From positions 1 to 47,578 of the forward strand of contig JBHIFL010000028.1 in the NCBI GenBank assembly GCA_046761065.1: a stretch of 47,578 nucleotides of DNA, in the 5' to 3' direction. Each line of letters starts with the position of its first letter. The stretch's first letter is position 1. The DNA is from Candidatus Heimdallarchaeota archaeon. GTDB lineage: Archaea > Asgardarchaeota > Wukongarchaeia > Wukongarchaeales > JBHIFL01. This document shows, one piece after another, positions 13,783 to 39,776 of the stretch. The translations under genes and the position numbers were made by a program. The notes under the pieces are model-generated. The model searched no databases, was not told the DNA's origin, and saw only the letters and a program-made list of their open reading frames with translations.

Positions 13783-13888
13783 GGGCCGGTAGATCAGCCC
13801 GGAAGATCGCCTCCTTGGCATGGAGGAGGCCCGGGGTTCAAACGAAAGAAAGATGTTTTTCCTTCTGAAAATCCCCGCCGGTCCACCA
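13783..13888 (+). tRNA. tRNA-Ala(GGC) with a 29-nt intron at 59/60 (13843-13871)
   Basis: GGGCCGG/CCGGTCC acceptor with G3-U70, CCTCC-TTGGCAT-GGAGG anticodon arm, BHB TTCA AA|C...TGAA AA|T, CCA encoded. Confidence 0.95.
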
Positions 13889-13999
13889 TTTTCTCATATA
13901 ACAATCTTATATTTTCTAAATTAAATTAATGTCAGTTAGGTAAATTAGGTCTTTTATGAACAAAATCAGGTTGCTCAGTTAAATCACTTTTTCCGATTA

Positions 14000-15283
14000 T
14001 TATGATGGTTTAAATCGTAAAATCGCGGCAATTCCTCCAAAGACCCGCCACAGTTGCTCGCCTTCTTCAGTCTCTGTAGTAATTATTTCAATTTTAGTTC
14101 CGCTCATCTTTGCAAGTTCTGCAAATTCTTCTATTACAGTAATAATATGATCTTCATCCAAATGGAAGGTAGAGCTTCCACATTTTGGGCAAAGACTTCC
14201 ACTAACGTCAGTTTCCATTTGAGAAAACTCAGTTTGTGTGGTAGTTCTTTCTTCGGTATAGTCACAGTTATCACATCGGAATGGCACCTTAATTTTATCG
14301 AGTTCTGTGCTTAAAAGCAGGATCTTAACCGCTCCAAGCTCTAATAAGTGACGGACTATGAAATCGCCATATGCAACCAATCCTGTATCTTTTCCTAAAT
14401 GTTCTAGAAATTGTTGCATTAACCGCTTCTCTTGCATATAACGAAGATTGTTAAGGGTTTCTTGTGCTTTTTCTATTAGTTCTTTGATTCCCTGCTCATC
14501 TGCATATCCAGTATCGGTTATTTCTAGAAGACCTTCCCTCAGACGATAATCTAAATAGTCTTCATTCACAAACCGTTCCTTGATTGGTCCCGGTCCGCCA
14601 ATTAACAATCCTTTTATTTGGGGTTCTCCTTGTTCTTCCCTCATTATCACATAGAGGTTCCGAGCATGTTCTGCTACTCTTTTGAGAAACGAATGGATCT
14701 TTTCCTCCCGAATTCGTTGAAATCGCGCGGCAGACTGCCCTCCGGCTCTTATCTTAGAAGGTACTCCCGATTCCAGTTTTTTATTGATCTCAAGATGGTG
14801 ACCACTCAATGTGGCAAGAGTGGCCCTTCCAGCGTCAAGAACCAGCAACCCAAAAGAATCTTTTTCAACTAATTGCTCCTCAAGGTATTCGACCCTGAAT
14901 TTATTGTCACACACGTAAAGCTTTCGGGAAACGGGGTAAGGTAAATTGTCCATGTAATGATATTCCATTTTTCCCCCCTCAGTTACACCAGTAAATATTA
15001 CAAATCCCTTTTCCTTGGATTTTGCTCCTGGAAGAGTCTTCAGCCGGGTGATCAGTACATTCAAAGCTTGGACAACGTTTTTACGTGTCTTTTTCGATTT
15101 GATATTCTCTGCAGTACCTGCCTCGGACGTAAGATCATTAATGATGTCAGAGAGTTGTCGTCCTGGGGGAACATAAAGAGAAATCAAGCAAGTGCTTAAA
15201 TCATCAGATTTTTTCCGCTTCAACGTCTTTAATCGGGTACAGAACCGCCATCGATCAAAGGAATCACTCAGATTGGCTGCCAT
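14000..15283 (-). CDS. prf1: Peptide chain release factor aRF1
   Basis: NIKS, GGQSAARF and GGIAAILRF; zinc-ribbon insertion CDNC..CPKC. Confidence 0.97.
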   Translation of the reverse strand: MAANLSDSFDRWRFCTRLKTLKRKKSDDLSTCLISLYVPPGRQLSDIINDLTSEAGTAENIKSKKTRKNVVQALNVLITRLKTLPGAKSKEKGFVIFTGVTEGGKMEYHYMDNLPYPVSRKLYVCDNKFRVEYLEEQLVEKDSFGLLVLDAGRATLATLSGHHLEINKKLESGVPSKIRAGGQSAARFQRIREEKIHSFLKRVAEHARNLYVIMREEQGEPQIKGLLIGGPGPIKERFVNEDYLDYRLREGLLEITDTGYADEQGIKELIEKAQETLNNLRYMQEKRLMQQFLEHLGKDTGLVAYGDFIVRHLLELGAVKILLLSTELDKIKVPFRCDNCDYTEERTTTQTEFSQMETDVSGSLCPKCGSSTFHLDEDHIITVIEEFAELAKMSGTKIEIITTETEEGEQLWRVFGGIAAILRFKPS

Positions 15284-15561
15284 TACTCACACCAAGTCTA
15301 TCCAGTTTTTTAACGTAAAACTTCGAAAAAGGAAGGAAAAAATAATTTTTCCCCTTCCCTCCTTATCCATTAAAACTATCTTGCATCTGAACCTAACTAC
15401 AATTATGTGTTCGGATTAGGGAAGACAGAAGAGCCAAACTTACGCCTTAAGTTAACGAGAAGGATCTTATCTTCTTTCTTATCATATTTTCAAAAGATAA
15501 TCAATATATAAAAAAATTATGAGAAAGGATCATCTGCATATGAGAATAGGGTTTATTGATA

Positions 15562-15972
15562 TCACAAGACTTGGTCAAGTTTATCTTTTGCTTTTCGTAG
15601 AGAAAGTAAGAGTAGCCCAAGACGAATCTCTTTTTGGGTTACTACAGTAATCAATACGTCTTTATTAATTCTTTGCAGCACAATGAGTCCCTTTGGGCAC
15701 TTAACAATTAAAACTCTCGGATTACCTTTATCTAATTCCAGACCGACCTGTTCTCCTACACTTATAAGAGCAGCAGTCATTGCACTGAGGATTGTTTCAT
15801 CTTGACTCATGCCGAGCCGTGTTGAAGCAATAGGAAGACCTTCGGAGCTTACAAGCAAGACCGCAAGAACTTCAGGTACTTCAATCTTAATTGAATCTAG
15901 AATTTCACTTAGGAGCTTATCCTGACATGTTCGTTCCGTTCCTATTTGACTCTCCGGTGTATTAATAACCAC
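15562..15972 (-). CDS. Roadblock/LC7 domain protein
   Basis: VLAVLLVSSEGLPIAS...LSAMTAALISVGEQVGLELDKG...LGLLLL. Confidence 0.88.
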   Translation of the reverse strand: MVINTPESQIGTERTCQDKLLSEILDSIKIEVPEVLAVLLVSSEGLPIASTRLGMSQDETILSAMTAALISVGEQVGLELDKGNPRVLIVKCPKGLIVLQRINKDVLITVVTQKEIRLGLLLLSLRKAKDKLDQVL

Positions 15973-16239
15973 TGTGTCCCCCTAAGTTTCTCTTTCTTCA
16001 GCCTTATAAACCCCAATGAATTTTTTGAAATACAATTATAACGAGTAGGTATTCAACTACTCTACATGAGTGAACACACAAAAATCATAAAACTAATTCC
16101 ATAACAGTGGCAAACAATCAAATGAAGACTTTGAAAATTGTGGAGTGGTATTTTTTAAAGTGGAAGAAAACTAGAAATCTTGTTAATGTGATGTGACAAA
16201 CTAAGCAAAATTAAGAGGGTTTCTCTATTTATTTGTGAA

Positions 16240-17292
16240 ATGAACAGAAACTCACATACAGGTAGGCAATTTGTTCGCGAAGCGAGGTTCTATAAAACAT
16301 TAGTGGATGGAAGTGTCAAGTGTGGAACTTGTGAACGCCGTTGTCGGATTTATCCAAAGAAAGTTGGTTTTTGTAAGACCCGCCAGAACATCAATGGTAC
16401 CCTTTATACTCTCGTTTTTGGTCGGGTAGCGAGTTTATCAGTGAACCCAATCGAAAAAAAACCGTTATATCATTTCTATCCAGGATCTAAAGCTGTTACG
16501 CTAGGAACAAGTGGATGCTCCTTCAATTGCCCGTGGTGTCAAAATTATGAACTAAGTAGAGCAAAACCTGATGAACTAAGAGCGCAATATATAGGACCCG
16601 AGGACTTAGTGGAGTTTGCCATCAAAAACAGAATATCAGGATTATCATACAGCTTTAATGAGCCCATTTTACAACTAGAACATGCCTTAGCTGCGTTCCC
16701 TCAGGCTAAAGAAGCCAGATTATATAATACCTACGTGACAAATGGTTATATGACTCTTGAAAGCCTTGATTTACTAATAGATCACGGCTTGGATGCCATG
16801 AATATTGATATTAAAGGGGGTAGAGATGCTGTTCGAAAGTACTGTGGCGGCGATGTGGAATATGTGTGGCGGAACGCGCGCCATTCAATAGAACGAGGAG
16901 TTCATGTTGAAATCACCACTCTAATGATTCCAGGAGTCAACGATGATGAAAACTGTTTGAAAGGGATTGCTAAACGAATCAAAGAAAACCTTGGAGAGAA
17001 CACACCCTTTCATGTATCACGATATTTCCCACATTACAAATTCAATCGCCCCCCAACGTCTGTAAAAAGTCTCGAGCGAGCAAGAGAGATCGCACTTGAA
17101 GAGGGGTTGAAGTTCGTTTACATTGGCAATGTCCCAGGTCACCCCGGAGAGCATACGTATTGCCCCAGCTGCGGCAAGATGGTCATTAAACGTTATTCAT
17201 TCTATGGAACAGAGTGTAAGTTAGTAGAAAAGAGTTGTCCGAAGTGTAATGAAACGATTCCCGTGGTTGGGACATGTATGGGAAACAAATAA
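16240..17292 (+). CDS. amrS: AmmeMemoRadiSam-type radical SAM enzyme (PFL-activase-like)
   Basis: N-terminal CGTCERRC..GFC, PIEKKPLYHF, CxxxCxxC (CSFNCPWC), YIGNVPG and C-terminal CPxC pairs. Confidence 0.88.
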   Translation: MNRNSHTGRQFVREARFYKTLVDGSVKCGTCERRCRIYPKKVGFCKTRQNINGTLYTLVFGRVASLSVNPIEKKPLYHFYPGSKAVTLGTSGCSFNCPWCQNYELSRAKPDELRAQYIGPEDLVEFAIKNRISGLSYSFNEPILQLEHALAAFPQAKEARLYNTYVTNGYMTLESLDLLIDHGLDAMNIDIKGGRDAVRKYCGGDVEYVWRNARHSIERGVHVEITTLMIPGVNDDENCLKGIAKRIKENLGENTPFHVSRYFPHYKFNRPPTSVKSLERAREIALEEGLKFVYIGNVPGHPGEHTYCPSCGKMVIKRYSFYGTECKLVEKSCPKCNETIPVVGTCMGNK

Positions 17293-17904
17293 ACTTATAT
17301 AGGATTCTTTATGGAGAATAAATCCAATTAATTTGCATTGGGTATCCGAGAGGAATTGAGTGAAAGCAATTATCTAAATGGGAAAGCCACATAATTGGAT
17401 GTAAAGAAATACGAAGGGTTTTATTAAGCTGATGATACCGAGAGATCATCGTGTAAATTTTTAGTTTTTTCCATCTCTCCCTGCCACTAGATTTAAATAT
17501 ACTCTTGTTTAATTCTTTATTCTACATTGAAAATGCAAATTCTTAAAGTAAACTATAAAGATAATCCGACAAAAAGCAATATATAATATCATTTACAATT
17601 TAAGGTCATATTGATGTACTTTACGATTATAAATTGTAATTAAGATAGATGGGTTGGCGCGGGGTTTTGCCTTATTTATAACTCTGCTTATGAATAAACA
17701 CAATCGGAACAACTTGTAATGAGTCTTTGATGGATTTTATAGTCAAAAGAATGCCTTAGGAGGAATATATCTTTCAAACACATCCTTATACATACGTATC
17801 CTTACTATGGAAAATAGGAGGTAAGAATTCAAGATTATATAAGGAGTATTGTCCTTTAATTTTAGCGATATATTTCCATAAAAGAACTGGAGTGGAAGAT
17901 ATGA

Positions 17905-19677
17905 ATGATTGAGGTCGGTACTACTAAAGCAAATGGGATGAAGAGCGAGCAAAAAATCACTCTCTCAAAAAACGCTCAAAAAGTTTTAGAAAGAAGATAT
18001 TTGATAACAAATGAGGAGGGTAATGTGATTGAAACTCCAGTAGAAATGTTTCGTCGCGTGGCCAGGAACATAGCATCAGCAGATACCCTCTATGGCCATT
18101 CACAAGAAGAACTCAAACAGATAGAAGAGGAATTTTTCCAAATTATGGCTAAACTAGAATTTCTCCCTAACAGCCCAACTCTCATGAATGCTGGACGAGA
18201 GCTCCAACAGCTCTCAGCATGCTTTGTTTTGCCTATTGAAGACTCAACTGAAAGTATTTTTGATGCCGTTAAACAAGCGGCTTTGGTCCATAAATCTGGA
18301 GGGGGCACTGGGTTTTCGTTTTCACGCCTCCGCCCGAAGAATGATCGAGTTCGATCAACAGGTGGCATCGCTTCTGGACCGGTCTCCTTCATGAAGGTTT
18401 TTAATGTCAGTACAGAGGTAATCAAGCAGGGTGGGACTCGGCGAGGCGCTAACATGGCAATTCTTCGAGTAGATAATCCAGATATTTTGGAATTCATTAC
18501 TTCCAAAAAAGAAGTGGAGGCTTTCACGAACTTTAACATCTCTGTTGCGCTAACTGAGGAATTTATGAAGGCTTTAAAAGAAAATCGGGACTATGATCTC
18601 GTCAATCCCCGTACTCACGAGATTGTCAATCAATTAAACGCCAAATATGTTTGGGATATTATAATAGAGATGGCTTGGAAGACTGGTGAACCTGGAATAG
18701 TTTTCATGGATCGCATAAATGCAGCAAATCCCACCCCTTTACTTGGAGAGATTGAAGCGACGAACCCTTGTGGTGAACAACCTCTATTACCATATGAGTC
18801 ATGCAATTTGGGTTCAATTAACGTAGCGAAAATGGTACAGAAGAATGTTTATGGCGTGATGGAGATAAATTATGAGAAACTCCGGTCTGTTGTCAGGACA
18901 GCTTTACATTTTCTAGACAACGTGATCGATGTAAATGAGTACCCTCTTCCTGAAACCGAAAAAATTACTAAAGGGAATAGGAAAATCGGTTTAGGGGTCA
19001 TGGGTTTTGCAGATATGCTTATTAAGCTAGGGGTTCCCTATAATTCTCTCAAAGCAATAAAAGTAGCTAATGAATTGATGCACTTCATCTCAAGTGAAGC
19101 ACGGAAAAAATCGCAAGAACTCGCAGAAGAACGAGGGGCCTTTCCTAGTTTCAAAGGGAGTATTTACGATAAACCTGGTCATCCAGTAATGCGCAATGCA
19201 ACAGTAACAACAATTGCACCAACAGGAACGCTAAGTATAATTGCTAACTGTTCAAGTGGGATTGAACCTCTTTTTTCTGTAGCGTATATTCGAAACGTAC
19301 TGGAAAACGAGAAGCTCATAGAAGTAAATAATGTCTTTAGAAAGATCACGACAGAAAGGGGCATATACAGCGAAGAATTGATAAGAAAAGTTGTTGAAAA
19401 AAGAACCCTTCAGGATGTCGAAGGTATTCCTCAAGACATCAAAGATCTGTTTGTTACAGCCCATGAGATTTCACCCATCCATCATATTCGGATTCAAGCC
19501 GCATTTCAGAAGCATGTTGACAATGCTGTCTCAAAGACGGTCAATTTGAATTGCAACACGACGAAAAAGGATGTAAATGAAGTTTTCAATCTAGCTTATG
19601 AACTAGGCTGTAAAGGAGTCACAGTATATAGGGACGGATCGCGCCCCAATCAAGTTCTTTCAATAAATTTTAGCTAA
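17905..19677 (+). CDS. nrdJ: Class II (adenosylcobalamin-dependent) ribonucleotide reductase
   Basis: PNSPTLMNAG, QLSACF, RRGANM, TNPCGEQ, CNLGS, TIAPTGT, SKTVN and KGVTVYRDGSR; start may be 17938. Confidence 0.95.
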   Translation: MIEVGTTKANGMKSEQKITLSKNAQKVLERRYLITNEEGNVIETPVEMFRRVARNIASADTLYGHSQEELKQIEEEFFQIMAKLEFLPNSPTLMNAGRELQQLSACFVLPIEDSTESIFDAVKQAALVHKSGGGTGFSFSRLRPKNDRVRSTGGIASGPVSFMKVFNVSTEVIKQGGTRRGANMAILRVDNPDILEFITSKKEVEAFTNFNISVALTEEFMKALKENRDYDLVNPRTHEIVNQLNAKYVWDIIIEMAWKTGEPGIVFMDRINAANPTPLLGEIEATNPCGEQPLLPYESCNLGSINVAKMVQKNVYGVMEINYEKLRSVVRTALHFLDNVIDVNEYPLPETEKITKGNRKIGLGVMGFADMLIKLGVPYNSLKAIKVANELMHFISSEARKKSQELAEERGAFPSFKGSIYDKPGHPVMRNATVTTIAPTGTLSIIANCSSGIEPLFSVAYIRNVLENEKLIEVNNVFRKITTERGIYSEELIRKVVEKRTLQDVEGIPQDIKDLFVTAHEISPIHHIRIQAAFQKHVDNAVSKTVNLNCNTTKKDVNEVFNLAYELGCKGVTVYRDGSRPNQVLSINFS

Positions 19678-20088
19678 CTTTGCTGTTAAGCTCCAAAATA
19701 GATCTTAATGAAATCATTTATGAAAAGAATCACTCAATTGAGAAAATCTTATATCGGAAAGGGCAAGGACGCTTCAGGGTCCTTTAATTCCCTTCTTATG
19801 GTTTTTATCACAGGCATTATAGAGCCTTCTAGGAGTATTGGTAGAATTATATCGTCTGATAAATCGTTTACACCTATTACAAACAAGAACTCTATTGAAT
19901 GGATTAGTTGGAGACTACCATTTTCCCGATCGGGTAGCTAACTTAATCTTATCAAGTGGCTATGAGAATCCATAAAAAATCGCCACATAAAAAAGACGAA
20001 TAAAAATGTGTTTTTCCCTCGTTTATTTGCGAAATGTGTGTAAAACTTTTAAAAAAGTAAATGAAATACGAATAGGTGGAACCTCAAG

Positions 20089-20715
20089 ATGAAAATGGTT
20101 TTAGCGGCGGTACCAGGTGCGGGGAAATCAACTGTTATGCATCTTATTCAAAAAGAACTCCCAGAGATCAATATTGTAACTTTAGGGGATTTCATGTACA
20201 ACATCGCTAAGAAAGACTATGGAATACATGATCGAGATGAGATGCGAAAAAAGCTCTCCCCAACAGGATATCGTGATGTTCAGGAGAGAGCGGCTACAAA
20301 CATTTCACAATTGACAGGTGATGTTCTTATTGATACGCATTTGTCAATTAAAACAAGTTTCGGTTACTATCCCGGCCTTCCAGATGATTTGGTAAGGTTG
20401 ATCCAGCCAGATGTTATTGTCTTACTCGAATTTGAACCGAAAATCGTTTTAAATCGTCGAAAAAAGGATATAGAGTTAAATAATGAAAAGACTACGTTGA
20501 TTGGGACCGTTGTGAAACCAAGAGCTGGGAGAGAGCTTGAGAACCTGGAGGATATCGATCATCAACAACAGTTAAACAGATACTTTGCAGTTGCTGCAGC
20601 CAATGCAGCCAGATGTTCTGTTAAAATAATTGATCTTCGATTTGAGCAACATATCCCTTTTGAACATGCACAAACTGCGGCTAAGGAGCTCATTGCACTC
20701 TTTAAGAATAAATAA
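20089..20715 (+). CDS. adkA: Archaeal adenylate kinase
   Basis: AVPGAGKST, DRDEMRK and IDTH..I....GYYPGLP. Confidence 0.92.
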   Translation: MKMVLAAVPGAGKSTVMHLIQKELPEINIVTLGDFMYNIAKKDYGIHDRDEMRKKLSPTGYRDVQERAATNISQLTGDVLIDTHLSIKTSFGYYPGLPDDLVRLIQPDVIVLLEFEPKIVLNRRKKDIELNNEKTTLIGTVVKPRAGRELENLEDIDHQQQLNRYFAVAAANAARCSVKIIDLRFEQHIPFEHAQTAAKELIALFKNK

Positions 20716-20729
20716 AGATCAAGTTCCCA

Positions 20730-21257
20730 CTATTTCGGGAGGGATTCTTTTTTTCGTCGTTTAAAGAGGACTATAGCCAGAAAAAGCCCAAGTAAGCTGA
20801 GGATTAGAGTGAATCCTCCTATTTGTACATAGATACCAATGTCATAGGTCACCAGTGCATCTGCTTGATTTGAGTTTTCTAACACAAGAGTCCAATTTGC
20901 TTTAGTGGGGATTGTAAATAACGACTTTTCGTCAAATTTTTGTGGGTTGAAATTTCTGTGGAGTGTTCTACTTGTATTTTCGTAGACAGGTGACCAAGGT
21001 AGGTCTTTCACATATAGTTCGTATTGAGCCGCTTCTGCTATGTACAAGCTAACACTAATGCCGTTGGTGACGTTGATATCCCATTGGACTTTAGTATCAT
21101 CATCGAGGATCCCAAGGGTAAAGGCGTAGTGGCTTGTCCCTTTGATTGTGATTTCTCCACTCTTAGAATTTGAGATCATTAAAGGACTGGATAAAAAAAT
21201 AAGCAAAAGCAAAAGAAGCCCTAATGCTTGGTTATTAAGATTGTTACGGATCTGCAT
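20730..21257 (-). CDS. Hypothetical type I membrane/surface protein
   Basis: N-terminal signal peptide, beta-rich ectodomain, then GGF + TM helix + KRRKK tail. Confidence 0.75.
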   Translation of the reverse strand: MQIRNNLNNQALGLLLLLLIFLSSPLMISNSKSGEITIKGTSHYAFTLGILDDDTKVQWDINVTNGISVSLYIAEAAQYELYVKDLPWSPVYENTSRTLHRNFNPQKFDEKSLFTIPTKANWTLVLENSNQADALVTYDIGIYVQIGGFTLILSLLGLFLAIVLFKRRKKESLPK

Positions 21258-21729
21258 CTGTTATCCCACATTGTTTTTACTAAGGTAGCAACAAATCAAT
21301 TTTGTAGCAGAGTAAAAAACTTTCTTGCAAGAAGAAAGGCAGTACTCTGATACTTGCGGATGTCAGAGTTGACATGGCTTATAAAAGTTAGTTTCTACAA
21401 GGATGATTACCTTTGTATTTGGTTAAATGAAAAATGTGTTTTGTCAGCTTCGAATTGACATCTTCCCACAGCTCAAGTTCGTGAGAATCCTTTACTGTTG
21501 TCTTTCCGTAGAAGAGGTAGTCAAACAACCATTAAGTGTGCCATTCCTTGGTTAATATCCTTTTTATGGAGGATCTATTAACATGATCTAAATTCAATGC
21601 TTTCATAATATCCAGGAAGTTCCCACTAATTAGCTGGAATAGTTCGCTATTGTGAGAAACATCACAAAATTTATACAAACCGATACTGCGATTGAAACGG
21701 TGTTGAGTTAGTAGATAATTACTTGGAAG

Positions 21730-22320
21730 GTGCGCTGTTTGGTTAGCCTAGATCCATTAAGAGATGCTCTGATTCGGGCAGGACTCCCATTAAAACCTCC
21801 TGGAGCAACAATATTTGTAATACTCTTCAGTTCGGGTTTATCCCTATTTATAGCTCTTTTGAGTCGCTATATGATTGACGTTGATGAGTTGAAGCGTTAT
21901 ACGCAGGAGATAAAGCAATACCAAGATTTACTGAAAAAATCAAAGCAGACTGCAAATCGTAAGTTAGCGGTAAAATTGAAGCGGCGTGAAGCGTACATTC
22001 AACGGATCCAAAGAAAAATGATGTCCCAACGCTTCAAACCAATGGCTATCTATTTTATTCCTCTTATTATCATGTTTTATGTTCTACGAGGCATTTATCC
22101 TGCACCCACATTGGTATTCGCAGAAGGAACCAAAATAGCTACAGGGGAGTGGATAAAGTATACCAATGTTTTACCTTTTAAGATCCCAGGTCATAGGTTT
22201 GGGACAGCTGCTCCATGGGACAATTCACATACAATTCTATCCTTTGTCTGGTTCTATTTTATGGTTTCACTTACAATTGGTTCAGTAATTCAAAAAATGC
22301 TAGGATTAACTCCAGAATAG
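21730..22320 (+). CDS. DUF106 / EMC3-TMCO1 (Oxa1 superfamily) membrane insertase
   Basis: TM, coiled coil, FKPM motif, then WFY TM; located before L34e. Confidence 0.85.
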   Translation: MRCLVSLDPLRDALIRAGLPLKPPGATIFVILFSSGLSLFIALLSRYMIDVDELKRYTQEIKQYQDLLKKSKQTANRKLAVKLKRREAYIQRIQRKMMSQRFKPMAIYFIPLIIMFYVLRGIYPAPTLVFAEGTKIATGEWIKYTNVLPFKIPGHRFGTAAPWDNSHTILSFVWFYFMVSLTIGSVIQKMLGLTPE

Positions 22321-22333
22321 AGAAGGGATTTTA

Positions 22334-22603: not shown

Positions 22604-22608
22604 TAATT

Positions 22609-23154: not shown

Positions 23155-23186
23155 TATAATAAAATGGCAAATCATTCGGAGGAGAA

Positions 23187-23465: not shown

Positions 23466-23580
23466 AAGCAGGGTTTCATAAATGCAATGGAACTTGTGAG
23501 TTAAGACCTTGCGAAAATGAATAATACAAGTAGTACTTACACTCCAATGGAAGCTTAAAGCATATCCGTAACTATAAACT

Positions 23581-23729
23581 GCCGGGATCGCATAGTGGTA
23601 GTAACAGGTGATTATGCACCTATGCAGCTGTATTGCGCTGGCTTGGAGAGCCAGTGGTCTTGACGGACCACGTGGGTTCGAAAGAATGAAGTATAGGTCT
23701 TCATTTCAAAAATCCCACTCCCGGCGCCA
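23581..23729 (+). tRNA. tRNA-Ser(GGA) with two introns: D-loop ~20/21 (23600-23631) and T-loop 59/60 (23683-23712)
   Basis: GCCGGGA/TCCCGGC acceptor, CTGGC-TTGGAGA-GCCAG anticodon arm, long variable arm, G73 and CCA. Both introns are hairpins with relaxed BHB motifs; the D-loop junction is ambiguous by 1-3 nt. Confidence 0.92.
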
Positions 23730-23777
23730 ATGTTCTAAAAATATCACTTCGAAGAATTACTTATAGATGGCTCTATA

Positions 23778-24443: not shown

Positions 24444-25486
24444 TTAGAGTTTCTTATAAGGAGGATACGTTCCTCGCTCCATCAAGACTTTATTCGTCTC
24501 GGCAACAAGTCCAGTCTCGGTCTCTAAGATTCTTGAAGTATTCAAAATTGCTCTTCCTAAGGCTATGGCTTCCCCTTTCAAAGAGAATATGGCAATAATA
24601 GATCCTTTTTTAATATTTGAGTCGATTTGAAGCACCCCCGGAGTAGCTAGATTTGCACCATGGCATATTGCATCAATTGCTGAATCTCGTATTATTATTT
24701 TTGGGATGTGACTTAAAGCAGATTCTAATGGTCGTATACAACGGCGTAGCGGTGTTTCTTCACCATTTTCCTTATACCACATAATGGCATCTTTGAGCTC
24801 GTATAAGGTTACAAGGGTTTCATCTTCTCGAAAAGGGCCAGCACGTGTCCTACGAAGCTCCCGCATATGCGCTCCAGTTCCTAAAGCCAACCCTAGGTGA
24901 TGACACAACATCCGTACATAGAAACCAGCTTGACACCCGATCCTTAAGAGGATATATCTGTCTTTGATTTCGAAGATATCCAGATAGTAGATTTCTCGAA
25001 TCCGCAAGCGCCTAACAACTGATGAACGAATTGGTGGGCGTTGAAAGATTTTCCCGACAAATTCTGATGCAATATTGTGGATTTCCGTCGTAGGAACCTC
25101 TTTATGCAGCCGCATCACACATATATATTCCTTCCCAGCTGGGAGTAACGTCTGAATAACCTTTGTCGCTTTCATCAAAGCAACAGGCAGGACACCAGTC
25201 ACATTGGGATTTCCTTGCTGTATTTTCAGTTCAGCTCTAAGGTCCCTGCATGGCCCGCCTTTTTCACTCCTAGAATCCGTTTAACCCATGCCACTATTTC
25301 GTGGCTTGTTGGGTTTGGTGGCTTATCAATGTTTACTATACCACGTTCGAGCAAAGCCTTGATGGTTCTCTTCGCAGGAATACACCCATAATCCGGATCT
25401 GTTGTGTCCTCTGATTTTATAATTAACTGGCGTTCAATATCCACGGGGAGTATTTTCATCATCTCCACTATTTCATGAACAAGCAT
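24444..25486 (-). CDS. cbf5: Cbf5 / TruB-family pseudouridine synthase, spliced: join(25486..25237, 25210..24444)
   Basis: Two ORFs, IDKP..PTSHE..GHAGTL and VTGVLP..KEY..PUA. Removing 26 nt restores GHAGTLDPNVTG and a 339-codon frame. Confidence 0.95.
25211..25236 (-). other. BHB mRNA intron in cbf5 (26 nt)
   Basis: Strict BHB: GGGA CCTT AG|A GCTG-loop-CAGC AAGG AA|A TCCC; contains an in-frame TGA. Confidence 0.93.
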
Positions 25487-31171: not shown

Positions 31172-32344
31172 TTATTCTGGCAATGTAATAATTTCTCCCA
31201 TGTTCAATGAATCATCTGTTAATCGTTCTAAGTCGAGTTCTTTCTCAAGATTTTCAACTTTCTCAATATTTGCTTTGGTTACGGGATTCGATGCGATTAA
31301 TGAGCAACAATCTTTATAAGATCGAATTGAAATCTGATAGGTTCCAATTTCTTTAGCAAGGGCGATTATCTCTTCCTTATCATAGGTTAGTAGTGGTCTT
31401 AGGATAGAAAATGATACGCTAGATTTCTGGGCATCAAGATTTTCTAGTGTTTGAGATGCCACTTGACCGAGAGAATCTCCTGTCACGATCGCTTGCAAGC
31501 CTTCTTGTACAGCAATTCGCTCGGCGACTCGCAGCATAAATCTCCGAAAGAGTATAAGCTCGTATTTTGGGGGGATGGTCTGTAGAGTTGCTAACTGAAA
31601 AAAGGCTGCGGGAACAATATGAACATTTGCTTGGAAAGAGTATTGGGTCAAAATTTTTATCAAGTCGGTGATTTTAGAGTTTATTGCCATTTCGTTTTCA
31701 CGAAATGGATGAAAATGGAGAAAGTCAACCGCACATCCACGTTTCATAACTAACCAAGCCGCGACGGCCGAATCAATCCCTCCACTAAGCAAACAAAGAA
31801 CTCTTCCGGTGACATCGATCGGAAGTCCCCCCAATCCTCTAATTTTATCAAAAAATATGAATATTTGGTTATCAGCTACCTCAATGAAGATCTGAATTTC
31901 CGGATTCTTCATCGAAACTTTTACACCATACTTTTCTACTAATTGGGCGCCTATTAAGGCCCCTAATTGAGGAGATGTTAGAGGAAACCGTTTGTTTGAG
32001 CGTTTAACAACGACTTTTATGGATACATTTTTTTTCAAAAAAGATTGTACTCTTTTGAAAACCTCTCTGCGTAATTCGTCAAGGTCCGGGCTTGTGGTAT
32101 AGGCAGGGGCGTACCATGAGATCCCAAAGACCTTAGCTAATTTCGAGTTAATCTGAGTCAAATTCGATTTTGTATTTAAATGTAATACAACTCTTCCACG
32201 CTCCATTTGCACCTCATCAATTATTTCAGTTCTTAATGCTTGGTGAATATTTTTTACCAGCTTTTTTTCAAAGAACGGGCGATTTCGTCCTTTGAGAGTA
32301 ATTTCTGCCGCATAATGGATGAGGATACAATCGTAAGAACCCAA
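31172..32344 (-). CDS. thiI: tRNA 4-thiouridine synthetase ThiI
   Basis: EITLKGRNR, THUMP domain, PP-loop LLSGGIDS, GDSLGQVASQT and DCC. Confidence 0.95.
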   Translation of the reverse strand: MGSYDCILIHYAAEITLKGRNRPFFEKKLVKNIHQALRTEIIDEVQMERGRVVLHLNTKSNLTQINSKLAKVFGISWYAPAYTTSPDLDELRREVFKRVQSFLKKNVSIKVVVKRSNKRFPLTSPQLGALIGAQLVEKYGVKVSMKNPEIQIFIEVADNQIFIFFDKIRGLGGLPIDVTGRVLCLLSGGIDSAVAAWLVMKRGCAVDFLHFHPFRENEMAINSKITDLIKILTQYSFQANVHIVPAAFFQLATLQTIPPKYELILFRRFMLRVAERIAVQEGLQAIVTGDSLGQVASQTLENLDAQKSSVSFSILRPLLTYDKEEIIALAKEIGTYQISIRSYKDCCSLIASNPVTKANIEKVENLEKELDLERLTDDSLNMGEIITLPE

Positions 32345-32981
32345 TATGGTAACCTTTTAAGCAATCTTGACAGGTTTTTCGCCCCTGGTAAGCCTCCCAG
32401 TGGGTTACGCTGTTTTTATTTAGGAAACACTATTAAGTGTAATGACTATCTTTTTATAAATTGATACTAATTCTGATTTCTTCCGCTTTATTTTCTCGTT
32501 GCTAAATCAGTTTTCAGAATGGGATTTGGACAATATTTTGATTGTGTTTTGCCTTAAATTTGTGTTTTGCTATAAGTCTTCATATTAACAAATTATATGT
32601 ATAAACACATCATGTACAAAACTCAAGTCCACAATGAATCAATAACCTTAAATCATACCCTTCAGCCAAAGATCTTATAGGGTTTGGTATAACCTAAGAT
32701 GTTGGCTTCGATTTAGTCTTCGTACAGAAACTTGGGAAACAACATAGCGTGGTTACACTGTATATAAACCGTCAATAGATTGATTTCCCTCCTTAGGGAT
32801 CGGAATTATCTTGGTTAAGCAAACCGAACAATGTAAATTTCTGGGGGATTTCTAGAAACACCACAGAAAAATTAGTGAATTTTTAACATGAATTGGGCAT
32901 TTAAGACCATGATATCGCCTGTATACTACAAAATTCACCCAAATGAGACGGTTATACCTAAAGATATACAAGATTAGGTTT

Positions 32982-33980
32982 TTAGGATAGCGGAAAAAGC
33001 TCTAAAAATACTAAGAGTTCAACGGGAAGAACTAAAAGCGCGAAAAAGGTTAGGCTTGAAATGAGAAGACTAACATTCGATTCGGAGAAATGAAAAAATT
33101 TTCCATAGATAATAACGGATACAGCAGGTGGTGCCATACTTTGAATTAATAATGGGAGAGCAACAATAGCTGGAGCGTCCCAGGTTATTAATAGAAGTAA
33201 AGCTAAAGAAGGTGCAACAAGAAACCGTGAGACCGCCACCTGGAAGGTTTTTTTAGAGAAGATGTTTTTTGGAGAAAGCTGGTTTAATTGATTGAATGAA
33301 ACCCCAATTAGTATAAGGGCACCGTATAATGAAAAGTTTTTGATGATATCAAGTCCTGGAATTGCCTCAATTGTTTGTGGGCCATAAACCGAATAAACGA
33401 GAAATCCAATGATCAGAGCCATGATTGGAGGAAATTTAATCATATTAAACGTGAATTCTTTGAGATCAACCTTTAAAGGGGAATCGTGTTTTTTATTAAT
33501 GTTTTGGGTGGGTTCAGGTCTATGCCAGATCCCAATGGCGGCACCTAAACTATTTCTCATTATCATCGCCATGAATAAAAAAATAGTTGCATACAATAAG
33601 GCAGGAGTTCCTGCTACAGCAAGAATTATCGGAAATGGAAAATATATGGAATTAGGAAAAGTAGCACAAAGGACAAATGCTCCGGTTTCTTCTTTTCGTT
33701 GATTTTTCTGGATAATTCGAATGGAAATGTAACTAACTAAATGGATCATAATAGTAACAATTACCACTTGAATAACAACATTCCCAGGAAAAGAGGTCAC
33801 TTTTGCAAACGAAGAGATGATAGATATTGGGAAAAAAACCCAGATTGTCATCTTAGTAAACCATTCTCCGTATTTCGGTCTAAAAAATATTGAAAACCGC
33901 CATAGGATCCCTAGACTTATAACAAAATAGATTATAAATAGACGGGAAAGGAGTTCTAAGAATCCTTCGAGGAAAAGCAT
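32982..33980 (-). CDS. AEC (auxin efflux carrier) family transporter
   Basis: About 10 TM helices, FPNSIYFPFP and AMAPPA-like motif. Confidence 0.82.
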   Translation of the reverse strand: MLFLEGFLELLSRLFIIYFVISLGILWRFSIFFRPKYGEWFTKMTIWVFFPISIISSFAKVTSFPGNVVIQVVIVTIMIHLVSYISIRIIQKNQRKEETGAFVLCATFPNSIYFPFPIILAVAGTPALLYATIFLFMAMIMRNSLGAAIGIWHRPEPTQNINKKHDSPLKVDLKEFTFNMIKFPPIMALIIGFLVYSVYGPQTIEAIPGLDIIKNFSLYGALILIGVSFNQLNQLSPKNIFSKKTFQVAVSRFLVAPSLALLLLITWDAPAIVALPLLIQSMAPPAVSVIIYGKFFHFSESNVSLLISSLTFFALLVLPVELLVFLELFPLS

Positions 33981-34586
33981 CTACAACCAACTGGATCAAT
34001 TTACTGGTCGAAATAACATATGATTCCCTTTGATACTTGAAAAACCCCCCAGTATGAGCAGGTTCAGGACTTTAATGAAATTTATCCTTTTTGTGCAATA
34101 CTAATTTACCAAAACTCAGATTGATAATTACACACAACAATCAATGAGGGCTTTATTCGGTAAGCATTATTATAAGAAATTTTAGTTTCCACGAAAGAAT
34201 AATCATTATTTCTTTACCCATAGAAAAATAATCTAGTCTACTAGTGAAATCATTTTCTCGGAATAATCTAAATATATTGTGAGGTAAAGGAAGAAATCAA
34301 TACCAAGGAAATTAACAATCCAGTAAATTTTATTCCTTAATTCCAAAAAGAGAGATATGAGTGAAAGGGAACCATGATAATTTGATTGAATAAAAGATTT
34401 TATATCGAAGATTTCGTTATGCGATAAATATTCAAAGGATCTTTGATATAAATACTCGAAAACGGCTTAAGCGTAGTTAAACGCTTAAGTAACAACTTAT
34501 TGAGATCATCCAAAAAACTATTGGGCTATAAAGTATGCTGCTTAGCAGCAATATTACTCTCGAGAATTCGCTCTTGTGTGATTGAG

Positions 34587-34826
34587 ATGTCCTTTCGGCT
34601 CCTCGTTAATGAAAAAAGATGCAATGCTTGCGGAAATTGTTGGGTTGCATGCCCAACGATGGCTCTCGTAGAATTCGATCCAGAAAGCGATGCCACGTTT
34701 ACGATCATAAGAACTACTAATGGAGAATGCAAAGTGCTTGATGTGAATGGTTGTAATGGTTGCGGTGTTTGTATAGAAGCTTGCTACAACAACGCTATCC
34801 AACTCAAACTTTTAGAAGAAGATTAA
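34587..34826 (+). CDS. 2[4Fe-4S] ferredoxin
   Basis: CNACGNCWVACP and CNGCGVCIEAC; ATG at 34587. Confidence 0.9.
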   Translation: MSFRLLVNEKRCNACGNCWVACPTMALVEFDPESDATFTIIRTTNGECKVLDVNGCNGCGVCIEACYNNAIQLKLLEED

Positions 34827-34846
34827 TCAGCAATAGGAGGATTCTA

Positions 34847-35293
34847 ATGCCGATCGTCGAGTTTGAACCAAAAATTCTTGTTTTTTGTTGTAGCTGGTGT
34901 AGTTATGCAGCGGCCGACCTCGCGGGGACAAGCCGTATGCAATATCCTGCAAATATCCGTATTCTACGAGTGCCTTGCTCTGGCCGCGTAGACTTGCTTC
35001 ATGTTGTAAAAGCGTTTGAGAGAGGCTGGGATGGGGTTTTAATCACAGGTTGCTTAAAAGGTCAATGTCACTATTTAGAAGGAAACCTAAAAGCAGAAAC
35101 CCGTGTCAGTTTTCTTTCCGACCTTTTAGAGGAAATTGGATTTGATTCGAGGAGATTACGAATTCGTTTTATGAGTGCAGCTATGGCTCCTGAATTTGTT
35201 AAGGAAATTACAGTATTTAAATATCTTATTCAAGAAATAGGACCCTCTCCTTTTAGAAAACACTTGATAGAATCAACAGGCATCACTTCATGA
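34847..35293 (+). CDS. mvhD: MvhD/FlpD-type [2Fe-2S] subunit
   Basis: FCCSWCSYAAAD, RVPCSGR and GC..GQCHY..GN; SD AGGAGG then ATG 34847. Confidence 0.93.
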   Translation: MPIVEFEPKILVFCCSWCSYAAADLAGTSRMQYPANIRILRVPCSGRVDLLHVVKAFERGWDGVLITGCLKGQCHYLEGNLKAETRVSFLSDLLEEIGFDSRRLRIRFMSAAMAPEFVKEITVFKYLIQEIGPSPFRKHLIESTGITS

Positions 35294-35346
35294 AAAAATG
35301 AGATGTATTTGTTAAGGGCAAAAATGGTTTGGTGGTTTTGTAGGCA

Positions 35347-36579
35347 ATGCCCCCCAAAAGCATATTAGTGATAGGTGGTGGCCTTTCGGGCGTATTCCTA
35401 GCGCAAGAATTAGCGGATTTTGGTTATAAACTCAACCTAGTAGAGAAGCTTCCATCAATCGGTGGAATCCTACTAGATTTAGGAAAAGTCTTTCCGACGG
35501 ATGATTGTGCCCTTTGCTACCCTTCAGCGGCTCGGTTTACAGACGGAGGATTTCGGAAATGCCAATTTCGGACACAGGTACAATTTCACCCTAAAATCAA
35601 CCTATTTACTAATTCCGAGCTTGAGACTTATGAACGAAATGGAGGCAAGTTTCATGCAGTGATCCGTAAACGGCGCTTTGGTATTTATGAATCCAAATGT
35701 GTCGGCTGTGGTGAGTGTATAACAGCATGCCAAGCCACACATGAAGAAGATACACAAATACCAATTCGATTCTATCATTCACAAGCTGTTCCACGAGTCC
35801 CCTACATCTCGAAGGAGGATTGCGACCGATGTGGTAAGTGTATTGATGTATGTGAGCCAGGAGCCATCAATTTCGATTGGGAAGATGAAACAATAGAGCT
35901 CGATGCGGATGTAGTTGTCTTTGCCACAGGTTTCCAAGAAATGACACCATACACAATTCTTCGTGAATTTGGCTATGGAGAACTTCCAAGAGTTATTACA
36001 CAAGTGGAATTAGCACATTTTCTAGATCCCCTCCGAGTAAAGGGTAAAAAAGATCTAGATATCGACCAGAAAACGCTCTTTAATCACGTCGTGATGATTA
36101 CCTGTATTGGCTCGCGGGATCAACGCTACTATGCGTATTGTTCCCGAATTTGCTGTACTTACACCTTAAAACATGCTCTTATGCTACGGGAGAAGGATAT
36201 TGAAGTGACTGTTTGCTTTATGGATATACGAACTCCTGGCTTTATAGAAGACTATTACTTACGGTGTAGAGCCAAAGGGGTTAATTTTATTCGAGGACGA
36301 CCCAATTTAGTGGAGTGGGATGCCGAAACGGAATCCTTGGTTGTGGAATTTGAGGATACACTCGCCCAACAATCCAAACACCTTCAGGCAGATCTTGTTG
36401 TTTTAGCTACAGCGCTTTTTCCAAGGCACACAGATCGATATACGGGAAATGAATTGGAAACTACTGTTGAAGGAGAATTCAAGGCAGGTAGTATGATTGA
36501 ACCGCGAAATATACCTGAAACAATAAGAGATGTCGACGCATTATGCCTTAGAATTGTCAAGTATCTTGGGAGCCCATAA
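35347..36579 (+). CDS. hdrA: HdrA-like FAD/[4Fe-4S] protein (short form)
   Basis: GGGLSG, EK.PSIGG, FPTDDCALC, inserted ferredoxin domain, CIGSRD..YCSRICC and DIRT. Confidence 0.85.
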   Translation: MPPKSILVIGGGLSGVFLAQELADFGYKLNLVEKLPSIGGILLDLGKVFPTDDCALCYPSAARFTDGGFRKCQFRTQVQFHPKINLFTNSELETYERNGGKFHAVIRKRRFGIYESKCVGCGECITACQATHEEDTQIPIRFYHSQAVPRVPYISKEDCDRCGKCIDVCEPGAINFDWEDETIELDADVVVFATGFQEMTPYTILREFGYGELPRVITQVELAHFLDPLRVKGKKDLDIDQKTLFNHVVMITCIGSRDQRYYAYCSRICCTYTLKHALMLREKDIEVTVCFMDIRTPGFIEDYYLRCRAKGVNFIRGRPNLVEWDAETESLVVEFEDTLAQQSKHLQADLVVLATALFPRHTDRYTGNELETTVEGEFKAGSMIEPRNIPETIRDVDALCLRIVKYLGSP

Positions 36580-36607
36580 AGATGTGGAAGAGCTAGAGGT
36601 GAGTTCA

Positions 36608-38641
36608 TTGAGAACAGGGGTAATCTTTTGTTCATGCAATAATACGATCAAGCTGAATTTCGAGCGTTTAAAGCAAATCATCCAAGAACGCTATCATCCG
36701 GATACGATCATCCTCAATAATACATTATGTATTGGAAAAGAGAAAGAAAAATTGCTTAAAATATTGAAAGAGCAGTACTACACGGGAATCCTGATTGCAG
36801 CTTGTAGTGAAAACATTTTCCAGGGAATTTTTCCACGCAAAAGTACTATACCATCAGATACCTGTCTTGAAGTGGTTGATCTTCAGGAAGAATGTAAACC
36901 CCATTCCTCGGAGCTTGGGCTTATTAAAGCGGTTTCAATGATTGGGGCAAGCCTATTCAAGTTGGAAAAGCTGAAACCCCTTAACAAAATCCAGCAGGAA
37001 ATTAAGGCTCCAGTTGCAGTCATTGGAAATGGGCTATCACTCCTGAAAGTGGTAGAAAATCTGTCTGACTTGGGAATCCACGTTACGGCAATCTCCCCAG
37101 GTACCGTCGAAGAAACTACTCATCCAGAGGCAGGTACTATTAAATACACTGGAACTCGAGCGAAGCTGAAACAAAAGTTTCAAAAAGCCAAGAAAGTTGA
37201 AATTCTGGAACAAGTCGATGATATCAATGTTTCTGGCCGGATTGGGGATTTCCAAGTTCAGGCCCGTAGAGGGGGGGAGATCACCACACACACCGCAGGA
37301 CTCCTTGTATTTGCTTCAGACGGAGACGAATATAAACCCTTTGATCTCTCACAACATGGATACGGGCGTTTTAAGCAAGTAAAAACCCTGGGGGAAATTA
37401 TCGGAGAATTTCAAGAGAATACAGCCTTACAGGGTCAAAATATAATCATTGCCAATTGTATTGGTTCCCGAGACGAAACGTTGGGGCGCCCTTATTGTTC
37501 TGCTTATTGCTGTGACCAAGGTATTCGTCTTGCTCGCGAATTGACCCAGAAAGGAGCAAATGTCACCATTTGTTATATGGCAGATGTCCGATCCCTATTT
37601 TTCAATGAAGAAGAATACCGTAAAGCACGCATGGAAGGCGTAGAGTTTCTGAGAGCTGGTCTAGGAGATGTCGATGCAGATACGGGTTCAGGTCGACTGA
37701 AAGTTACAATAGAAGATACACTCAGTGGTCAGATCCTTGAGAAATGTGCCGACCAAGTCGTTCTTTCTTGCGCCCTTCTTGCATCTCCTTTCTTGAGGGA
37801 TGTTGGCCAAAGGCTCAAATTGGAGATAAAAGAAGGAGGATTTCTGAAAGAACTCTATTCCAAACTAAAAGCAACTGAGACAAAGCTTCCAGGCGTTTTT
37901 GTATGTGAATCGGTAGTTCAACCGTTACCATTGACCGAAACTCTCAAGAGTGCTGATGCAGTTGCCTTTAAAGTGCTGAAATCCCTCCAAACCGAGTACC
38001 TTCGAACAAACACAACAGCCCAAGTGGACAAAGACCTCTGTGTAGGTTGCGAATTGTGTGTCAAGCATTGTCCAAGGCAAGCTATCACTACTATCGTTAT
38101 AGATGATCAACTTAAAGTGGAAGTAGATCCAACTATCTGTCAAGGCTGTGCGCTTTGTCAAACCTTATGTCTAACTGGAGCAATCCAACTTGCCAATTAC
38201 GAAGATGAGGCACTGATAGGCCAGATAAAAGTAGCAATTGATGCATGGAAAAGCCTTACGAGTTCTCCTTTAATCATGAACATTGCATGTCGTGAATGTG
38301 GTTATTGTGCGATTGAACATGGGCACTTGAGTGGGATCGAGATGCCTGAACACACCATAACTATTCAAGTTCCTTGTGCAGCACGAGTTTCCCCTTTAGA
38401 TCTTCTCACAATTTTGGACTTAGGAGCTGATGCAGTTCTTGTGATAAGCTGTCCCGAGGAAAATTGTCACATGCAGGAGGGTAGCCACACGGCACGTTTA
38501 CATGTGCATTTTGTCAAGAATATTCTTCAACAAATTGGGCAGAATCCTAACCGAGTGGACATCGTTCAATTGTGCGCTGCTGAAGCTAATAAGTACGCTT
38601 CAAAGCTTAAAGCCCTTGAAGCAACTTTGGAGGGATCATAA
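36608..38641 (+). CDS. hdrA: HdrA-like protein with C-terminal ferredoxin and fused MvhD-like domain
   Basis: N-terminal GVIFCSC, CIGSRD..YCSAYCC, two CxxCxxCxxxC motifs, then CRECGYC..VPCAAR..CH. Likely start is TTG 36608 after SD GAGGTGA (ORF open from 36530). Confidence 0.85.
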   Translation: MRTGVIFCSCNNTIKLNFERLKQIIQERYHPDTIILNNTLCIGKEKEKLLKILKEQYYTGILIAACSENIFQGIFPRKSTIPSDTCLEVVDLQEECKPHSSELGLIKAVSMIGASLFKLEKLKPLNKIQQEIKAPVAVIGNGLSLLKVVENLSDLGIHVTAISPGTVEETTHPEAGTIKYTGTRAKLKQKFQKAKKVEILEQVDDINVSGRIGDFQVQARRGGEITTHTAGLLVFASDGDEYKPFDLSQHGYGRFKQVKTLGEIIGEFQENTALQGQNIIIANCIGSRDETLGRPYCSAYCCDQGIRLARELTQKGANVTICYMADVRSLFFNEEEYRKARMEGVEFLRAGLGDVDADTGSGRLKVTIEDTLSGQILEKCADQVVLSCALLASPFLRDVGQRLKLEIKEGGFLKELYSKLKATETKLPGVFVCESVVQPLPLTETLKSADAVAFKVLKSLQTEYLRTNTTAQVDKDLCVGCELCVKHCPRQAITTIVIDDQLKVEVDPTICQGCALCQTLCLTGAIQLANYEDEALIGQIKVAIDAWKSLTSSPLIMNIACRECGYCAIEHGHLSGIEMPEHTITIQVPCAARVSPLDLLTILDLGADAVLVISCPEENCHMQEGSHTARLHVHFVKNILQQIGQNPNRVDIVQLCAAEANKYASKLKALEATLEGS

Positions 38642-39129
38642 TGAGCGCAGAAGGTAAGAAACGAAGAGATCTTCTTAAAACTTTAATGAAAATTGCGATT
38701 AAACCACCAGAGAAACCGATTCCTGTTCCGGAGGATGTACAAGGCTTTGGTATGATTGTGAAAAAAGAAGAGCGTACCGGATCATGCCTATCTTGCCAAA
38801 AATGTGTGGAAATTTGTGAAGATGACGCTATTCATCTTAAGAATGTTTTTGACCTAGCAGCATTTCTCCAATTATCCAAAGAGCAAATTAAGACTGCGCC
38901 TCCAAAAAAACAAGCCTTCTATCATGTTCTAAAAAAGTTGGCGTTAAGGGATCCAGAAGGAATTGTGGAAATTCCTGAAGACATGACCTCTTTTGGTGAA
39001 ATCGAAGTATTTGCCCCAAACTGCATAGCATGTATAAAGTGTGTCGAGATTTGTCCAGAACAGTTATTAGAGAAACTTAATCTTTTTGATCTCCCCACGA
39101 TCTTTTCAGCTCTTGAAAAAGCCGCCTAG
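38641..39129 (+). CDS. 4Fe-4S binding protein
   Basis: CLSCQKCVEIC and CIACIKCVEICP separated by a helical insert. Confidence 0.85.
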   Translation: MSAEGKKRRDLLKTLMKIAIKPPEKPIPVPEDVQGFGMIVKKEERTGSCLSCQKCVEICEDDAIHLKNVFDLAAFLQLSKEQIKTAPPKKQAFYHVLKKLALRDPEGIVEIPEDMTSFGEIEVFAPNCIACIKCVEICPEQLLEKLNLFDLPTIFSALEKAA

Positions 39130-39164
39130 TCAGTTATAAATATCATTAATAGCATATTTATGTA

Positions 39165-39629
39165 ATGGTGTCTTCCATGAACAAAAAGGACTTATTGAAA
39201 CGCAAAGGAGGCATCTTCCCTAAAGGACAAATCACATTAGAGGATATTATCACTACAATGAAACAAGACCCAAATTTAAGCGATGCTGGGACTTTTACCT
39301 GTTTCATAGGGCTAACACGGCGAACATCAAGGAATGGAAAAGCTACAGAGAAGTTGGAAATCGAGACTTTCGAAGAAAAAGCCAATGAAACACTGGACAT
39401 CATTGCACGGGAAATTATCCAAAAGAAGGGGATCATTGATACAAGAATATACCATGCAACGGGGACGTTTGATATCGGGGAAGAGCTTGTTTTTGTAGTT
39501 GTCGCTGGAAGCCACCGTGATGAAGCCTTTCCCGCCCTTCGAGAAGCTGTGGAACGCTATAAAAAAGAAGCTGCGATCTGGAAAAAGGAATATTTAGCAA
39601 CTGGGGAGGCGTATTGGACAACTGAATGA
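39165..39629 (+). CDS. moaE: Molybdopterin synthase catalytic subunit MoaE
   Basis: F.G..R, H..G...IGE, HRDEAF and IWKKE. Confidence 0.93.
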   Translation: MVSSMNKKDLLKRKGGIFPKGQITLEDIITTMKQDPNLSDAGTFTCFIGLTRRTSRNGKATEKLEIETFEEKANETLDIIAREIIQKKGIIDTRIYHATGTFDIGEELVFVVVAGSHRDEAFPALREAVERYKKEAAIWKKEYLATGEAYWTTE

Positions 39630-39661
39630 CTCTATCCTACATTTAAAGTTCAGTAAACAGT

Positions 39662-39776
39662 TGGTGCGGGGAGAGGGATTTCCTGAAGGTGCGAATTTAC
39701 CCTCTTTCGAACCCTCGAAGACCTACGTCATCAGATCTTGAGTCTGACGCCTTTGACCTGGCTCGGCTATCCCCGC
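39662..39776 (-). tRNA. tRNA-Leu(CAA) with a 27-nt intron at 59/60 (39679-39705)
   Basis: GCGGGGA/TCCCCGC acceptor, TCAGA-CTCAAGA-TCTGA anticodon arm, variable arm, relaxed BHB TTCG AA|A...AGGA AA|T, CCA encoded. Confidence 0.95.

Follow-up and report, generated by a model that had tools for sequence, protein, structure and literature searches.

Results

Four tRNA genes with a T-loop insert

The window analysed here is the whole 47,578-nucleotide contig C28 (GenBank JBHIFL010000028.1) of a 4.42-Mb, 42% GC archaeal metagenome-assembled genome (MAG) from Candidatus Heimdallarchaeota archaeon (GCA_046761065.1), which is 91.5% complete and 8.2% contaminated. Proteins with 90% identity to those of the genome bear the NCBI labels Candidatus Heimdallarchaeota or Hodarchaeota, which places it among the Asgard archaea. 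It contains exactly four transfer RNA (tRNA) genes, each of which carries a short intron-like insert in the T-loop, between nucleotides 59 and 60 (59/60). The four were found with a custom insert-tolerant profile aligner, run first without any term for bulge-helix-bulge (BHB) motifs and then with a BHB bonus that fixed the boundaries. ARAGORN and Rfam report no tRNA in the window because T-loop inserts lie outside their models, and genome-wide the Rfam tRNA model exceeds its cut-off at only 12 places.

With their encoded CCA, which is present in all four, the genes are tRNA-Pro(GGG) at 4171-4400 on the reverse strand (search-called span 4174-4400), tRNA-Ala(GGC) at 13783-13888 on the forward strand (13783-13885), tRNA-Ser(GGA) at 23581-23729 on the forward strand (23581-23726) and tRNA-Leu(CAA) at 39662-39776 on the reverse strand (39665-39776). 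Each is the sole gene for its anticodon in the genome, and excision of the inserts restores a standard cloverleaf with 20-21 of 21 pairs and the conserved positions. The 59/60 inserts measure 31 nt in Pro (4188-4218), 29 nt in Ala (13843-13871), 30 nt in Ser (23683-23712) and 27 nt in Leu (39679-39705), and these coordinates agree to the base with those given in an earlier, sequence-only reading of the window. The same reading proposed a BHB in which T54-T55-C56-R57 forms the central helix and the T-stem the outer helix; this was recovered in all four genes, with the T-loop bases pairing to positions -6 to -3 of the intron; for the Ala precursor, the predicted fold displays the 59/60 BHB directly. 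The central helix has four of four pairs in Ala, a strict BHB, and in Pro, and three of four in Ser and Leu, where the mismatches noted earlier are C56.A (Ser) and G57.A (Leu, together with a T55.G wobble).

As had also been noted, none of the four genes has an intron at 37/38; the anticodon-loop intron of Pro lies at 33/34 instead (4268-4308, 41 nt, strict BHB). The BHB-aware search revealed introns beyond those noted before. tRNA-Ser(GGA) has a 30-nt D-loop intron at about 20a/20b (about 23601-23630, boundary ±2 nt, relaxed BHB), while tRNA-Pro(GGG) has, besides the 33/34 intron, further ones at 42/43 (4236-4258, 23 nt), in the D-arm at about 24/25 (4318-4344, 27 nt, boundary within a few bases; the parser places it at 20b/21 in relatives) and in the D-loop at 17/17a (4353-4383, 31 nt). 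The five-intron set of this gene is kept in six related contigs and equals the published per-gene maximum for Asgard archaea. A split DDE transposase resembling that of an insertion sequence (40022-41235, forward strand) lies outside the tRNA-Leu(CAA) gene, some 250 bases upstream of it, and is missing from the relatives L177 and L179.

The inserts as probable spliced introns

The inserts are almost certainly archaeal tRNA introns, such that EndA would cut each BHB and RtcB would join the exons to give the only Ala(GGC), Ser(GGA), Leu(CAA) and Pro(GGG) tRNAs of this genome. The exons of Ala and Leu are identical across related assemblies and those of Pro and Ser nearly so; in the introns, as many as 7 of 27 bases differ, yet the BHB motif is retained, with one two-sided compensatory change in the Leu intron stem and another in that of Ser. 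The central helix of the Ser 59/60 intron is fully paired in relatives L012 and L014, and the G57.A mismatch of Leu is conserved in L177-L179.

The genome also encodes the enzymes. The EndA catalytic subunit (195 aa) has the residues Y133/H141/K172, its best PDB match is 3p1z (E = 7e-41), and K50 in its loop of the Crenarchaea-specific loop (CSL) type aligns with Aeropyrum K44, a residue that confers broad specificity (PMC3241643). A second EndA paralogue of 214 aa lacks the catalytic His, and RtcB is present (E = 5e-160). The two EndA genes lie on contigs C15 and C2. Typing of EndA, a check put forward with the sequence-only reading, thus pointed to a predicted (alpha-beta)2 architecture, and assignment to the broad-specificity class is supported by the aligned residues. 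In the proposed pathway, the pre-tRNA would fold a BHB at each insert, the (alpha-beta)2 enzyme would cut each bulge after its second base, leaving the exons for RtcB to ligate. In vitro, the EndA of ARMAN-2 cleaves pre-tRNA-Cys(GCA) at a 59/60 intron whose motif is relaxed (PMC3239211).

The mismatch found in 12 of the 29 central helices at this site across the genome could be taken to mean that the inserts are never removed and mark pseudogenes or assembly artefacts. This is extremely improbable: the window genes are the only ones for their anticodons, independent assemblies contain the inserts again, exon sequences are conserved, and the tRNA elbow would be wrecked if 30 extra bases stayed in the T-loop.

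Genome-wide use of the 59/60 site

A census of the genome gave 47 full tRNA genes, comprising all 46 standard archaeal anticodons once and an additional Lys(TTT) gene, which lies on a contig of 2 kb. Introns interrupt 44 of the 47, with about 100 introns in total, or roughly 2.1 per gene. Parser calls were curated by hand for Asp(GTC), His(GTG) and Ser(TGA), as were two false calls of 10-11 nt in class II variable arms; the totals are approximate on account of the middle introns of His and a 95-nt D-arm block in Leu(TAA). That block, in a tRNA-Leu(TAA) gene with additional introns at 32/33, 37/38 and 59/60 (L170, C125:1245-1525, reverse strand), may be two introns, and tRNA-His on C22 may also hold five.

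The commonest intron site of the genome is 59/60, used by 29 of 47 genes (62%), followed in this comparison by 37/38 with about 21 (20 by parser and Ser(TGA) by hand; range 20-22); 12 genes have both. The excess of genes with only a 59/60 intron over those with only a 37/38 intron (17 vs 9) is not significant (P = 0.17). The T-loop site is therefore the most used in this genome, but 37/38 has not been displaced. The earlier suggestion that the default site has shifted to the T-loop is not supported, given the continued use of 37/38, and a stronger form in which 37/38 has been abandoned was rejected on the same count. Nor does the four-of-four pattern indicate a lineage-wide shift, as it is an ordinary draw from the genome's own frequency: for four random genes, the hypergeometric probability is 0.13 for all having a 59/60 intron and 0.10 for none having one at 37/38.

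Every one of the 29 inserts at 59/60 forms three or more of the four central pairs, and 17 form all four, against 19% and 2% of shuffled inserts under a null that holds the boundary fixed and is thus somewhat generous.

Geometry of the T-loop

The prominence of 59/60 very probably follows from the geometry of the BHB, because the T-loop, like the anticodon loop, has 7 bases above a closing stem of 5 pairs and can be regarded as its twin. An intron at n/n+1 uses nucleotides n-5 to n-2 as its central helix and needs n-6 to be paired with n+2. At 37/38 the central helix would be 32-35 and the closing pair 31:39, with the anticodon stem as outer helix; at 59/60 the corresponding elements would be 54-57, 53:61 and the T-stem. 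The outer helix is present in 29 of 29 introns at 59/60 and 19 of 20 at 37/38, but in only 4 of 54 at other sites. Furthermore, TTCR is near-invariant, and therefore a hairpin ending in YGAA plus two bases should be spliceable in almost every tRNA gene, while the conserved T-arm would supply flanking homology between tRNA genes.

Distribution among archaea

The GTDB sample searched held no other genome of the same family and two of the same order. In a pattern scan of GTDB with parsing checks, tRNAs with 59/60 introns appeared, among the matches listed, in Micrarchaeota, Woesearchaeota/Nanoarchaeia, Thermoplasmata, Methanosarcinales and Bathyarchaeota and under the Asgard labels Borr-, Thor-, Heimdall-, Hod- and Promethearchaeota, and no bacterial tRNA with such an intron was among them. 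Restriction of the site to the present lineage was accordingly rejected. Verified examples from Methanosarcinales/Methanotrichaceae and Thermoplasmata (L059, L098, L104, L056, L072 and L106) belong to groups usually described with narrow-specificity EndA.

In a comparison with 40 Asgard relatives, the ratio of interrupted to intact T-loops was 23:16 in this genome, between 11:8 and 19:21 in family f16 (one genome of which, G030, matches the Borrarchaeota record L068) and 13:11 in G037, where 6 of the 13 interrupted matches parse as tRNAs. The two genomes of the same order gave 2:33 and 4:29, which is the control level. These same-order relatives have intact T-loops, with interrupted ones only at chance level; taken together, the ratios show a 59/60 expansion that is lineage-restricted and has arisen more than once.

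Probable copying between tRNA genes

How the site filled is less certain. The evidence leans, though not strongly, towards a largely neutral filling, mainly by copying of introns of about 30 nt between tRNA paralogues through gene conversion or homing, that added to the existing 37/38 set. The 28 short 59/60 introns are all 27-34 nt long, while 37/38 introns span 14-82 nt (Fligner P = 8e-5). In 26 of the 28, the 5' arm is purine-rich and the 3' arm pyrimidine-rich, a polarity not seen at other positions. Families f16 and f18 share it, and 59/60 introns of Micrarchaeota and Thermoplasmata do not, so the site itself does not impose it. Two tRNAs for one amino acid have more similar intron cores than other pairs do (identity 0.50 vs 0.42, permutation P = 0.002), intron-core identity follows that of the flanking exons (Mantel rho 0.22, P = 0.002), and the 59/60 introns of Ala(GGC) and Ala(CGC), the latter on contig C5, are 81% identical.

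Relatives provide more direct examples. In the Borrarchaeota-family genome G020 (C48:12950-13600, L207), the neighbouring Arg(TCG) and Arg(CCT) genes have an identical 59/60 intron and 3' half, whereas their orthologues in G030 (L216) differ in both; the G020 pair appears to be a recent conversion tract. Leu(CAG) and Leu(GAG) have swapped intron types between f16 genomes. Intron likeness and switching together point to copying between paralogues, which may have proceeded through T-arm homology. A separate observation concerns Arg(TCG) in the present genome, where a 125-base duplicate (L169, C25:35635-35759, reverse strand), 97% identical to the upstream flank, 5' half and two introns of the gene, sits 2 kb upstream of the full copy; no integrase is found on that contig.

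Alternatively, each intron may have arisen independently, by hairpin capture or local duplication, and been kept only because 59/60 is spliceable, so that no copying is needed. For most intron pairs the likeness does not exceed what composition predicts, unrelated archaea have introns at this site whose sequences are unrelated, and a 2026 preprint on Asgard tRNA introns reconstructs many separate gains. What independent origin leaves unexplained are the identical Arg introns of G020, the isoacceptor and Mantel signals, and a strand polarity that this genome shares with f16 and f18 and that the 59/60 introns of Micrarchaeota and Thermoplasmata lack. It is consequently held to be rather unlikely as the main route, and paralogue copying is preferred.

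Several observations weigh against that preference and against the wider account of which it is part. Of the 378 intron pairs of this genome, just one has an identity of 80% or more, and the mean intron similarity is 0.422 against 0.414 for a composition-matched shuffle; with a single pair at that level and a mean so near the shuffle, any copying must have been mostly old or partial. Isoacceptor likeness could stem from ancient whole-gene duplication, and the 2026 preprint found cross-tRNA copying to be rare (1.5%) in the Asgard families on which it focuses. There is some circularity in the BHB statistics, since the BHB bonus placed the boundaries, although the inserts themselves were found without it. 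Finally, there is the contamination of the MAG (8.2%). Even so, splicing, geometry and copying combined remain a likely account of the 59/60 introns and the best of those considered.

A long intron in tRNA-Val(CAC)

The sole long 59/60 intron, of 427 nt, is in tRNA-Val(CAC) on contig C19 (45399-45825; L168 600-1026). The same locus in three metagenome contigs (L174, L175 and L176) has an intron of 167, 106 or 0 nt with conserved ends, and from these empty, 106-, 167- and 427-nt alleles it follows that at least one 59/60 intron probably entered as a long element that is now shrinking. A LAGLIDADG-like helix can be discerned in the broken reading frame of the 427-nt intron by eye only; an endonuclease identity found no confirmation in searches with Pfam, HMMER or Atlas, and a 42-aa piece of the frame gave two weak matches, in long multi-stretch proteins, in the representative library. 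No free-standing LAGLIDADG gene was found in the genome, where the matches above cut-off lie in frames of 434-1718 aa and are probably inteins. In relative L011 the ribonucleotide reductase gene contains a LAGLIDADG intein (7399-10266); its counterpart in the window (17905-19677) has none.

These data bear on whether most of the 59/60 introns were seeded by a homing-endonuclease intron with the conserved T-arm as its target and later shrank to about 30 nt. The Val(CAC) alleles with shared ends speak for such a process, and an exon bias fits a sequence-specific target: none of 7 genes with a changed U60 or G52-C62 in the T-arm has a 59/60 intron, against 29 of 40 others (post hoc Fisher P = 5e-4). 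However, the bias is equally explained by homology or splicing needs, the short introns have no visible likeness to the ends of the long one, and the endonuclease itself is unconfirmed and without a free-standing homologue in the genome. Seeding of most introns in this way is judged unlikely.

Integration of mobile elements

Selection to break the attachment sites (attB) that viruses and plasmids use in the 3' half of tRNA genes has also been invoked, and the sequence-only reading raised such a role too. This anti-integration role is the hypothesis of Randau and Soll, and the review that summarises it (PMC4090602) remarks that it cannot be the sole reason. Integrases do often target tRNA 3' halves (PMC6563490), no tRNA with a 59/60 intron is among 33 IMG/VR pattern matches, and the tRNAs resembled by three intron-free 3' fragments on small contigs lack the intron. 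Against this, the four tyrosine recombinase matches of the genome are all on contigs without a tRNA gene, two of them being integron-integrase-like, and in Thaumarchaeota 10 of 39 tRNA-targeting elements reside in intron-containing genes (PMC6563490). The intron leaves the 14 bases on its 3' side and the CCA undisturbed, and archaeal att sites of such a length occur (median 17 bp, PMC6563490); the 18 genes without a 59/60 intron would remain open targets.

Searches for integration scars gave the same picture. No att repeat was found at the tRNAs of this genome, only the 125-bp Arg(TCG) duplicate and the small-contig tRNA fragments. Among Asgard relatives, no tRNA lay within 1.5 kb of an integrase in 40 loci, and in eleven 20-kb integrase regions tRNA genes were 5-7 kb away in two, without an att repeat; tRNAs near integrases in intron-rich relatives likewise had none. 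No tRNA-integrated element was identified in these searches. The 2026 preprint saw no link to mobile elements either, at low power. An anti-integration role thus finds no support here and is considered improbable, more so than the homing seed.

Two observations on other contigs are recorded in this context. Integron-type integrases stand beside cassette-like genes on C94 (L171) and C178 (L172), possibly contaminant contigs, and the 3' fragments of tRNAs without introns, which are Ser-, Gln- and Ala-like, are on the small contigs C179 and C228 and may represent a second strain, a contaminant or att remnants.

Other features nearby

Beyond the tRNA genes, cbf5 (24444-25486, reverse strand) contains a 26-nt strict BHB intron at 25211-25236 that splits the catalytic Asp codon. 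Its removal gives a continuous frame of 338 aa, and the intron is conserved in L012-L015; its position is that of the crenarchaeal cbf5 mRNA intron. In L012 (about 6870-7135), some 265 bases of GC-rich, hairpin-like DNA with no Rfam match lie between a methyltransferase gene and the 3' end of cbf5 and have no equivalent in the window.

Discussion

Introns at 59/60 and intron-laden Asgard tRNAs have been published before, and the present finding is mostly confirmatory. The site is in the published list of non-canonical archaeal intron positions (Yoshihisa 2014, PMC4090602), and Asgard genomes with 92-95% of tRNA genes interrupted have been described (PMC11291895). The 2026 preprint reports 2.2 inserts per gene and (alpha-beta)2 EndA in 44 of 60 Asgard genomes; the present genome resembles those Asgards in having more than 90% of its tRNA genes interrupted (44/47), about 2.1-2.2 introns per gene and up to five in one, in the concentration of introns at 37/38 and in the T-arm, and in its (alpha-beta)2 EndA. 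It departs from them in three respects. Several Heimdallarchaeia in the preprint have fewer than one intron per gene, whereas the close relatives here carry the NCBI labels Heimdall- or Hodarchaeota; the main text of the preprint neither singles out 59/60 nor has it outnumbering 37/38, whereas here it leads; and little copying was found there, against a weak copying signal in this genome. What is new is a lineage labelled Heimdall/Hod that stands at the upper end of the intron range, with 59/60 as the leading site and a modest signal of copying.

Two other systems invite comparison. In Ca. Micrarchaeum acidiphilum ARMAN-2 (Fujishima 2011, PMC3239211), introns occupy the same 59/60 position with a strict or relaxed BHB, but the enzyme is of the epsilon2 type, while here it is (alpha-beta)2 and the site is used in 62% of tRNA genes. 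As PMC4090602 and the preprint summarise it, the intron transposition of Thermoproteales (Fujishima 2010) likewise involves related introns in different tRNA genes of one genome and an (alpha-beta)2 EndA with the CSL loop; according to those summaries, 28% of introns there belong to cross-tRNA families at ≥80% identity, whereas in the present genome a single 59/60 pair does so, from two Ala isoacceptors.

In practical terms, the tRNA sets of such genomes are under-annotated, given what ARAGORN and Rfam miss. Furthermore, the tight length range, the strand polarity, the isoacceptor likeness and the empty and shrinking Val(CAC) alleles make this a workable lineage in which to test how tRNA introns spread. 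A more tentative proposal, possible though doubtful at present, is that 59/60 serves as a second 'canonical' archaeal intron site that was filled by homology-driven copying and perhaps seeded by a homing intron, of which Val(CAC) would be the decaying remnant. If true, homing-seeded copying would offer a concrete route for the arrival of tRNA introns in Asgard archaea, a question that the 2026 preprint left open.

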